Shown here piece by piece: positions 44,638 through 45,850 of a stretch of DNA of 64,000 nucleotides (positions are counted from its first letter, which is position 1; every line of letters begins with the position of its first letter). Below the pieces are notes generated by a model. That model ran no database searches, was not told the origin of the DNA, and worked only from the letters and a program-made list of their open reading frames with translations. Both the position numbers and the translations under genes were made by a program. Where the stretch lies: NCBI RefSeq assembly GCF_000027125.1, contig NC_017626.1. The stretch is one strand, 5' to 3'. This DNA comes from Escherichia coli 042. Its GTDB lineage: Bacteria; Pseudomonadota; Gammaproteobacteria; Enterobacterales; Enterobacteriaceae.

Positions 44638-45270
44638 TTATTTCAGCAGTTCCGGCCATAAACGCAAAGTCGTTCGGGCAATTTGCATCAGTTTTTCCAG
44701 CGATGCACCTTCGCGTGCGCTGATCGACATCCCCTGAATAATACAATTAAGGAATTCTGCCAGATGCGTCACGTCACAGTGGGTCGGGATTTCCCCGCGC
44801 GCTTGTCGTTGACATAAAAACTGCTGCAAAGTGCGCTCTTGCATCGCATGGCGTGATTTCAGCGTATTGGCGATATCTCCGGAATCCGGGGAGAGGGTGG
44901 TGCAGTTGTTGATCATGAAGCAGCCTGCCGGGGTGTCTTTGCTGGTAAAGCAGTTGGCGATGGCAGCAAAATAGTCAGCCAGCGCAGACTCCACGCTTTT
45001 CTCTTCACAAAACAGCTGTGCTTCATGCTTAGCGGCAAAACGATCGATATAGCGGTCGAGAACGGCGCGAAATAACCCCTCTTTGTTGGTAAATTCCGCG
45101 TATAGCGTTGGCGCTTTGGCTCCGGTCGCTTCGACGAGGTCCGCAAGAGAAGTCGCTTCATAACCGTGTTGCCAGAACAATTTCATGGCCTTATCAAGCG
45201 CGGCATCCCTGTCGAACACTTTTGGGCGGCCACGGCTTTTTTTTACACATTGTGTTGAGTCAGTTGCCAT
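44638..45270 (-). CDS. comR: TetR-family transcriptional repressor ComR (YcfQ)
   Basis: ATG at 45270 gives 210 aa MATDSTQCVKKSRGRPKVFDRDAALDKAMKLFWQHGYEATSLADL (TetR HTH). Confidence 0.85.
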   Translation of the reverse strand: MATDSTQCVKKSRGRPKVFDRDAALDKAMKLFWQHGYEATSLADLVEATGAKAPTLYAEFTNKEGLFRAVLDRYIDRFAAKHEAQLFCEEKSVESALADYFAAIANCFTSKDTPAGCFMINNCTTLSPDSGDIANTLKSRHAMQERTLQQFLCQRQARGEIPTHCDVTHLAEFLNCIIQGMSISAREGASLEKLMQIARTTLRLWPELLK

Positions 45271-45510
45271 GATGCCGTTGTACCTGGTGACTGTGAATGA
45301 AAGGTTATTATAAAAATAATCACCTCCGTTCACCAGTCCAGATCCCATAAAAATAATTGCTTTCTATTTAACTGAAATTTAAAGATTTTTAAATTAATTA
45401 ATGATTGTTATAAAAAATATCTTGTATGTGATCCAGATCACATCTATCATTTAGTTATCGATCGTTAAGTAATTGCTTGCGACGTCATTCATCTGCATAA
45501 GGCCACTATT

Positions 45511-45768
45511 ATGAAAAACGTAAAAACCCTCATCGCTGCGGCGATTTTAAGCTCAATGTCATTTGCCAGCTTTGCGGCTGTCGAAGTTCAGTCAACGCCA
45601 GAAGGCCAACAAAAAGTCGGTACTATCAGTGCTAACGCGGGGACAAATCTGGGATCGCTGGAAGAGCAGCTGGCGCAAAAAGCGGATGAGATGGGCGCAA
45701 AATCTTTCCGTATTACTTCTGTAACCGGTCCGAATACCCTCCATGGAACAGCAGTAATTTATAAATAA
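45511..45768 (+). CDS. bhsA: Multiple stress resistance protein BhsA (YcfR), DUF1471 family
   Basis: 85-aa ORF with signal peptide, recognised BhsA. Confidence 0.88.
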   Translation: MKNVKTLIAAAILSSMSFASFAAVEVQSTPEGQQKVGTISANAGTNLGSLEEQLAQKADEMGAKSFRITSVTGPNTLHGTAVIYK

Positions 45769-45850
45769 GCATTAACCCTCATTAATGCCTGCTACTGCTG
45801 ATTTTTTTCCCCGCGACATGCCGTGTCGCGGGGATTTTTTTATCCAGGAT

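Follow-up and report, generated by a model that had tools for sequence, protein, structure and literature searches.

A 240-bp spacer separates two divergently transcribed genes of Escherichia coli 042, both placed by annotation and sequence comparison: comR (ycfQ; 44638-45270, minus strand), which encodes a TetR-family repressor, and bhsA (ycfR/comC; 45511-45768, plus strand), which encodes a DUF1471 outer-membrane stress protein. (Positions are those of the window, the whole 64,000-nucleotide stretch of contig NC_017626.1 that was analyzed.) Few stress genes of E. coli are regulated in as many ways as bhsA, whose control region carries an eye-catching dyad, read directly from the window as TGTGATCCAGATCACA at 45427-45442. 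An initial annotation, made from the sequence alone, took this dyad for a plausible ComR operator and drew attention to the Dam methylation site (GATC) in each of its halves. Here, we ask which protein the dyad serves and what its GATC sites signify.

Symmetry of the dyad

The dyad does lie in the comR-bhsA divergent region and does contain two GATC sites, at 45430-45433 and 45436-45439. The distance of about 70 bp to bhsA that had been given for it is also fair, as the ATG follows 68 bp after its 3' edge and 76.5 bp after its centre. Its description as a perfect 16-bp palindrome was right for the arms of the inverted repeat but not for the 2-bp centre: with a central CA, which is not self-complementary, the 16-mer falls short of perfect symmetry, and its reverse complement reads TGTGATCTGGATCACA. 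The arms measure 7 bp inside 45427-45442; an inverted-repeat search returned 8-bp arms over 45426-45443, where ATGTGATC and GATCACAT pair perfectly around the same CA.

As a generic inverted repeat, the dyad is nothing unusual. The 64-kb window contains 25 inverted repeats with 8-bp arms and a spacer of 0-6 bp (raw count, versus 9.3 +/- 2.9 in Markov simulations), the majority of which are terminator-like. What stands above chance is the specific pattern TGTGA-N6-TCACA, together with its conservation. This pattern was expected 0.06 times per window and was found once, with 0 mismatches, making the dyad its sole instance in the 64 kb.

The dyad as a CRP site

TGTGA-N6-TCACA is the two-fold symmetric core of canonical E. 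coli sites for CRP (the cAMP receptor protein, also called CAP), whose consensus is AAATGTGATCTAGATCACATTT. We scored the window with a symmetric position weight matrix (PWM) trained on 106 other CRP ChIP-seq sites (Haycocks et al. 2015, PMC4287617). The dyad reached 21.33 of a maximum of 21.96 bits and exceeded all 106 training sites (best, 20.09; median, 13.02), while the runner-up match within the 64-kb window scored 12.1. With respect to the matrix consensus, TGTGATCTAGATCACA, it differs at one central position (15/16 match). The full 22-bp site, GTATGTGATCCAGATCACATCT, spans 45424-45445, with the 16-bp core at 45427-45442 and the centre at 45434.5. The dyad thus resembles canonical CRP sites in its core and, as described below, in its occupancy by CRP in vivo, and differs from them in matching the consensus more closely than all 106 other ChIP-seq sites do.

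Direct evidence of binding is already in the literature. Table 1 of Haycocks et al. (2015, PMC4287617) lists a CRP ChIP-seq peak at position 1274886 of enterotoxigenic E. coli (ETEC) H10407, assigned to the genes ycfQ/bhsA, with the site TGTGATCTGGATCACA. As this listed site is the exact reverse complement of the 16-mer, in vivo occupancy of the 16-mer by CRP has been published. When we searched open-access full texts for the 16-mer in either orientation, just two papers contained it, each of them on CRP. Consistent with these findings, an EcoCyc-derived table lists bhsA as regulated by CRP-cAMP, and a RegulonDB/EcoCyc compilation places bhsA in an incoherent type-2 feed-forward loop with CRP, a class in which, according to that compilation, CRP acts as a repressor. 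A CRP gel shift (EMSA) on ycfR upstream DNA is also cited in a secondary source, and the main text of Shimada 2011 makes no mention of the ycfQ or bhsA genes.

The 15/16 match to the CRP consensus and the ChIP-seq site bear out the view of the dyad as a protein-binding operator within the control region of bhsA. We consider it very probable that it is a documented, near-consensus CRP site inside the bhsA core promoter and, as such, already known. A natural misreading is thereby corrected: an eye-catching palindrome beside a TetR-family gene belongs to the global regulator CRP and not to the local repressor. The current understanding of CRP or of Dam is unchanged by this result.

Conservation of the CRP site

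A scan with BhsA yielded 80 Enterobacteriaceae loci, 79 of which had enough upstream sequence and were used for alignment; E. fergusonii, a species reported to lack ycfQ, is absent from the 80. The divergent comR-bhsA pair is kept in nearly all 80 loci, with a spacer of 236-253 bp. In all 79 aligned loci, the best match to the CRP matrix lies 72.5-84.5 bp 5' of the bhsA ATG, with a median score of 19.8 and a minimum of 12.7. GTGA and TCAC never vary, nor does the 6-bp spacing between the two pentamers, while the central 4 bp of the core are variable (0.3-0.8 bits), the central hexamers including TCCAGA, CCTGGA, GCTGGA, TGCAGA, TGTAGA, TATAGG and others. The dyad is therefore conserved in the manner of the CRP information profile, with fixed pentamers, a free centre and a spacing of 6. 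Given the variability of core positions 6-9 and of the flanks, reading of the full arms by a repressor would not be expected. Among the 79 loci, the 8-bp arms and the left GATC occur in Escherichia only, and outside this genus the symmetry of the dyad is reduced to the CRP pentamers.

Of 5421 complete E. coli genomes, 5271 (97%) carry the 60 bp surrounding the CRP site without a single difference, and the flanking 1.2 kb mostly shows 95-99% identity. The 240-bp spacer is base-for-base the same as in MG1655 (window coordinate = MG1655 coordinate - 1123562), so that the K-12 literature is directly applicable to it.

While the spacer is identical, comR differs from its MG1655 counterpart by 11 nucleotides and 3 amino acids; and of the 5424 E. 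coli records that match the 1.2-kb region, just 125 are at least 99% identical to it. Both observations point to a stronger constraint on the control region than on the flanking genes.

A further observation concerns core positions 10-11 (45436-45437), the GA of the right GATC. In the orthologues, the G is invariant and the A is 94% conserved, although across CRP sites at large these positions carry just 0.10 and 0.32 bits, respectively, and their mirror positions, 6-7, are variable. Conservation this far beyond what CRP needs suggests that an additional constraint may act on the right half-site.

It is scarcely credible that the dyad has no role in DNA binding and is a palindrome by chance or an RNA hairpin. 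The window has, as noted above, no shortage of inverted repeats this long, but neither the near-universal identity within E. coli nor the invariance of the pentamers across genera would be expected of such a sequence, and no T-run follows the dyad. A search of Rfam gave no match over the dyad, and the only terminator-like matches, which were sub-threshold, lay downstream of bhsA. The dyad is also 5' of the probable bhsA start (see below), and so would fall outside the main transcript. On the basis of the Rfam search, the missing T-run, the conservation and the ChIP-seq data, we rejected the reading of the dyad as a hairpin or small RNA (sRNA).

Position within the bhsA promoter

Each of the 79 loci has a -35-like TTGAC(G) directly against the left side of the CRP core (in Escherichia, TTGTAT overlaps the first T of the core) and a TAnnnT hexamer 1-2 bp past the right edge, most often as TATGAT (34 loci), TATCAT (29 loci) or TATTAT (12 loci). 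The CRP core thus makes up the 17/18-bp spacer between the conserved -35 and -10 (TATSAT) elements of a near-consensus sigma-70 promoter. In the window, the putative -35 hexamer is TTGTAT at 45422-45427 (plus strand; TTGACG in most other genera), overlapping the left edge of the core, and the putative -10 hexamer is TATCAT at 45445-45450 (plus strand), 2 bp 3' of the core; the 79-locus alignment and the Salmonella data described next point to both.

In the differential RNA-seq (dRNA-seq) data for Salmonella SL1344 of Ramachandran et al. (2012; PMC3293720, supplement), the primary ycfR start is 55 nt 5' of the start codon. The associated promoter, ATTATAAAAAGAGGTTGACGTGTGATGTAGATCACATCTATGATTAACTTA, is labelled 'Sigma 70 (-10 & -35)', and its sequence includes ...GGTTGACGTGTGATGTAGATCACATCTATGATTAACTTA (PMC3293720). 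This 51-mer aligns without gaps to window positions 45407-45457. By homology, then, transcription of bhsA in E. coli would start at the A at 45457 (plus strand), 54 nt 5' of the ATG, which would put the centre of the CRP site at -22.5. The Cappable-seq supplements contained no matching coordinates for a bhsA start in E. coli. A simple promoter scan also missed the bhsA promoter, since TTGTAT matches only 3/6 positions of the -35 hexamer, and the promoters that Shimada 2014 picked from SELEX fragments differ from those supported by start sites.

A CRP site in this position is unlikely to activate. CRP sites are mostly near -40.5 or -92.5 (Haycocks et al., PMC4287617), and the dyad, at about -22.5 in the promoter spacer, differs from canonical sites in occupying no activating position. 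As the CRP core fills the spacer between -35 and -10, a bound dimer would have to exclude RNA polymerase. We conclude that repression by occlusion is the most likely action of CRP at the dyad, in agreement with the repressor sign given in databases. CRP sites that overlap core promoter elements, such as that of cyaA P2, lead to repression and not activation. The bhsA promoter is like these in having its CRP site within the RNA polymerase footprint; it differs in the exact fit of the site to the -35/-10 spacer and in the presence, on either side, of a candidate operator of a second, local repressor.

The arrangement suggests how bhsA could follow carbon status. A cAMP-CRP dimer on the dyad would be centred at about -22.5, in the -35/-10 spacer of the bhsA sigma-70 promoter. 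At high cAMP, CRP would bind, bend the DNA and exclude RNA polymerase, and bhsA would be repressed; when glucose lowers cAMP, the site would be vacated, and bhsA expression would be set by other regulators, chiefly ComR.

On the other side of the spacer, two comR starts can be placed by homology with the SL1344 ycfQ starts, which are 29 and 98 nt 5' of the start codon (PMC3293720). The proximal start, which is accompanied by a conserved block, would correspond to 45300 (minus strand) and the distal one, the primary start in SL1344, to 45368 (minus strand), the latter by a weak mapping with 32/51 identities. Relative to these starts, the CRP centre would lie at about -134.5 and about -66.5, respectively, and neither is a canonical activating position. 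The block in question, TTATTATAAAAATAATC at 45305-45321, is invariant, contains a perfect TATAAT on the minus strand (45312-45307) and matches the Salmonella ycfQ proximal promoter, whose start is 29 nt 5' of the start codon.

Candidate ComR operators

If the dyad serves CRP, where does ComR bind? The proposal that the dyad itself is the ComR operator supposes a TetR-family dimer on both arms that represses bhsA and is released by copper. It has in its favour the location of the dyad in the comR-bhsA divergent region and the fact that TetR-family operators are usually palindromes. A review (PMC10141476) also states that ComR binds the comC (bhsA) promoter region in vitro, at a site '60 bp upstream' of comC. 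A point 60 bp upstream is 8-9 bp from the edge of the dyad and 5 bp from a second palindrome, described next; with both distances this small, the statement is not decisive between the two.

Conservation in the spacer peaks outside the dyad, in the block 45456-45472, TATCGATCGTTAAGTAA. This block begins with a 12-bp palindrome, TATCGATCGTTA (45456-45467), which has a central GATC at 45460-45463, is one mismatch away from the perfect palindrome TAACGATCGTTA and would cover about -1 to +11 of bhsA. A site with at most two mismatches to TAACGATCGTTA occurs at +26/+27 from the CRP centre in 79/79 loci, and a second site of this type is found at -29 to -31 in 73/79. In E. coli, this distal site is the degenerate, palindrome-like TAATGATTGTTA at 45399-45410, which in other genera reads TAACGATCGTTA. 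The two E. coli palindromes are 57 bp apart, one 30 bp 5' and the other 27 bp 3' of the CRP centre. By homology, the distal one overlaps the -35 region of the upstream comR promoter, and the sequence of the Salmonella ycfQ primary promoter contains TAATGATCGTTA (PMC3293720).

Distant comR homologues separate the two kinds of site. In one genome (GCA_046449555.1, 30-2000), a ComR homologue of 53% identity is divergent from an 85-aa gene that is followed by three tandem genes for BhsA-like paralogues, giving four 85-aa genes in all. The upstream regions of all four have the same order of elements, namely, distal palindrome, -35, 17 bp, -10 and proximal palindrome, with a spacing of 56 bp between the palindromes. 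The CRP core in the promoter spacer is absent from two of these four regions, degenerate in one (TGTGATCCAGGTCTAA) and replaced by a CRP site further upstream in the remaining one. A second homologue (locus L089), 49% identical and with no BhsA neighbour, has two related sites 57 bp apart upstream of it and no CRP core between them. As the palindrome pair is kept beside distant comR genes and the CRP core is not, the pair travels with comR, and the CRP site is a separable module. The CRP-like dyad itself does not travel with comR, being absent, degenerate or displaced at the 53% and 49% homologues.

The assignment of the dyad to ComR is consequently not supported. The long arms and the left GATC are peculiar to Escherichia, the exact 16-mer is occupied by CRP in vivo (PMC4287617), and the dyad is not kept beside distant comR homologues, where the TAACGATCGTTA-type pair is. 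We regard a ComR operator at the dyad as very unlikely. ComR would most likely act on the two TAACGATCGTTA-type palindromes, one on the 5' side of the CRP centre and one on the 3' side over the bhsA start, and from their pattern of conservation we infer that these flanking palindromes are probably, though far from certainly, the ComR operators.

The closest solved relative of ComR is CifR of Pseudomonas aeruginosa (E=2e-32), which reportedly uses two binding sites in its own divergent intergenic region. The two conserved palindromes between comR and bhsA parallel the two CifR sites, and the dyad is neither of these palindromes.

An intermediate possibility is dual use of the dyad: contacted by both CRP and ComR, in competition or in cooperation, its 18 bp would integrate carbon status with copper or oxidative stress. 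The candidate ComR operators bracket the CRP site exactly, at -30 and +27, the right half-site is conserved beyond the need of CRP, and bhsA belongs to seven iModulons, indicating many inputs. However, the extra conservation is limited to two bases, and the flanking palindromes suffice for control by ComR. Such dual use is, in our judgment, unlikely. The useful product of the analysis is a testable control map of bhsA that consists of the -35 element, the CRP site in the spacer, the -10 element and two flanking candidate ComR operators.

GATC sites and Dam methylation

The comR-bhsA spacer contains four GATC sites (starting at 45341, 45430, 45436 and 45460), compared with 0.68 expected from the composition of the 240 bp. 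Two of the four are inside the CRP core, one per half-site. The left one (45430-45433) occurs in Escherichia only, and the right one (45436-45439) is kept in 50 of 53 distinct orthologous sequences and reads GGTC in Raoultella. The GATC in the proximal palindrome is invariant. The optimal CRP half-site, TGTGATC, includes a GATC, which accounts for the two sites in the dyad with no need to invoke Dam.

Methylation upstream of bhsA does vary. In a SMRT sequencing study of E. coli ZK126, one GATC in the non-coding DNA 5' of bhsA (both strands, 1072523/4), annotated as CRP-cAMP, was among 66 sites whose methylation signal changed in long-term culture (Westphal et al. 2016). A 2023 Salmonella study found a partially methylated GATC at 1,255,516 of strain 14028S, in the ycfR regulatory region; its methylated fraction correlated with ycfR mRNA under H2O2 (R=0.68), and ycfR rose from ~25 to ~7000 FPKM in the same data. 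The variably methylated GATC of both studies could be in the CRP site, or it could be the invariant one in the proximal palindrome.

We calibrated the ZK126 coordinates against MG1655 and W3110 with yccS, fadR, ldcA, glnP and ybbB. glnP and yccS agree on an offset of 98438/9 with respect to W3110, and this offset places ZK126 1072523/4 at 361-481 bp from every candidate GATC at bhsA. Put differently, the ZK126 offsets from W3110 at bhsA are 361-481 bp smaller than those at glnP and yccS, and at fadR and ldcA the offset from MG1655 is smaller again than at bhsA, by ~23 kb. Offsets that shift in this way imply that the ZK126 assembly carries additional DNA between these markers.

One would expect CRP on the dyad to shield its two GATC sites from Dam. 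GATC sites within CRP sites are said to be protected from Dam in vivo at mtlA, cdd, ppiA, gut/srl and flhD, in work attributed to Wang & Church 1992, Hale et al. 1994 and Tavazoie & Church 1998. Since protection is established at these other loci, passive protection is plausible here as well. The dyad is like these sites in having GATC embedded in a TGTGATC half-site; it differs from them in that the variable GATC at bhsA is one of four upstream and is not assigned to the CRP site. mtlA is also, like bhsA, among the CRP-cAMP-annotated non-coding GATC sites with a changing SMRT signal (Westphal et al. 2016). The earlier suggestion that a bound protein could protect the dyad's GATC sites from Dam therefore remains plausible by analogy, and protection is not tied to this dyad or to ComR, as there are four candidate GATC sites in the spacer.

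A stronger form of the idea is that the GATC pair is a Dam-dependent epigenetic switch of the pap/agn43 type, in which methylation blocks the regulator, the regulator blocks Dam and bhsA is heritably ON or OFF. The excess of GATC sites in the 240 bp, the site 5' of bhsA whose methylation changes over time in ZK126 and the correlation of partial methylation with mRNA in Salmonella would all fit such a switch. Against it, no genus but Escherichia has the left GATC, and Raoultella lacks the right one; the literature that we searched contained no report of phase variation of bhsA; and a tightly bound protein would be expected to cause partial methylation passively. We know of no effect of adenine methylation on CRP binding. 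A methylation-dependent switch at bhsA is thus not supported, and we consider the GATC pair highly improbable as one.

A more elaborate scheme would combine the three protein sites into a nucleoprotein switch. The bend introduced by CRP, midway between ComR operators 56-57 bp apart, would set the cooperation of ComR; Dam methylation would record occupancy, on the grounds that three of the four GATC sites are inside protein sites, and might even bias it; and the invariance of the right GATC would reflect selection for coupling to methylation. We think it quite unlikely that the locus works in this way, and favor CRP acting by occlusion, with passive shielding of the GATC sites.

Additional features of the locus

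In the AT-rich part of the spacer (31% GC), 45376-45395 forms another perfect inverted repeat, AATTTAAA-N4-TTTAAATT. The comR-bhsA spacer is marked as bound by H-NS in Shimada et al. 2014.

Downstream, the MG1655 annotation places an sRNA, BhsB, over the 3' end of bhsA and its terminator, corresponding to 45741-45840 of the window, where a hairpin at 45811-45831 is followed by a T-run. Rfam returned only sub-threshold matches to unrelated sRNA families over 45741-45840.

Three loci depart from the common arrangement. In Buttiauxella agrestis and B. izardii, comR and bhsA are separated by ~1.25 kb of additional DNA, and the CRP site and the proximal palindrome remain with bhsA. In Citrobacter koseri NCTC10786, the best tblastn match to ComR spans residues 84-210 only, pointing to a comR that is disrupted or frameshifted. 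The locus retains an intact CRP site and two intact palindromes.
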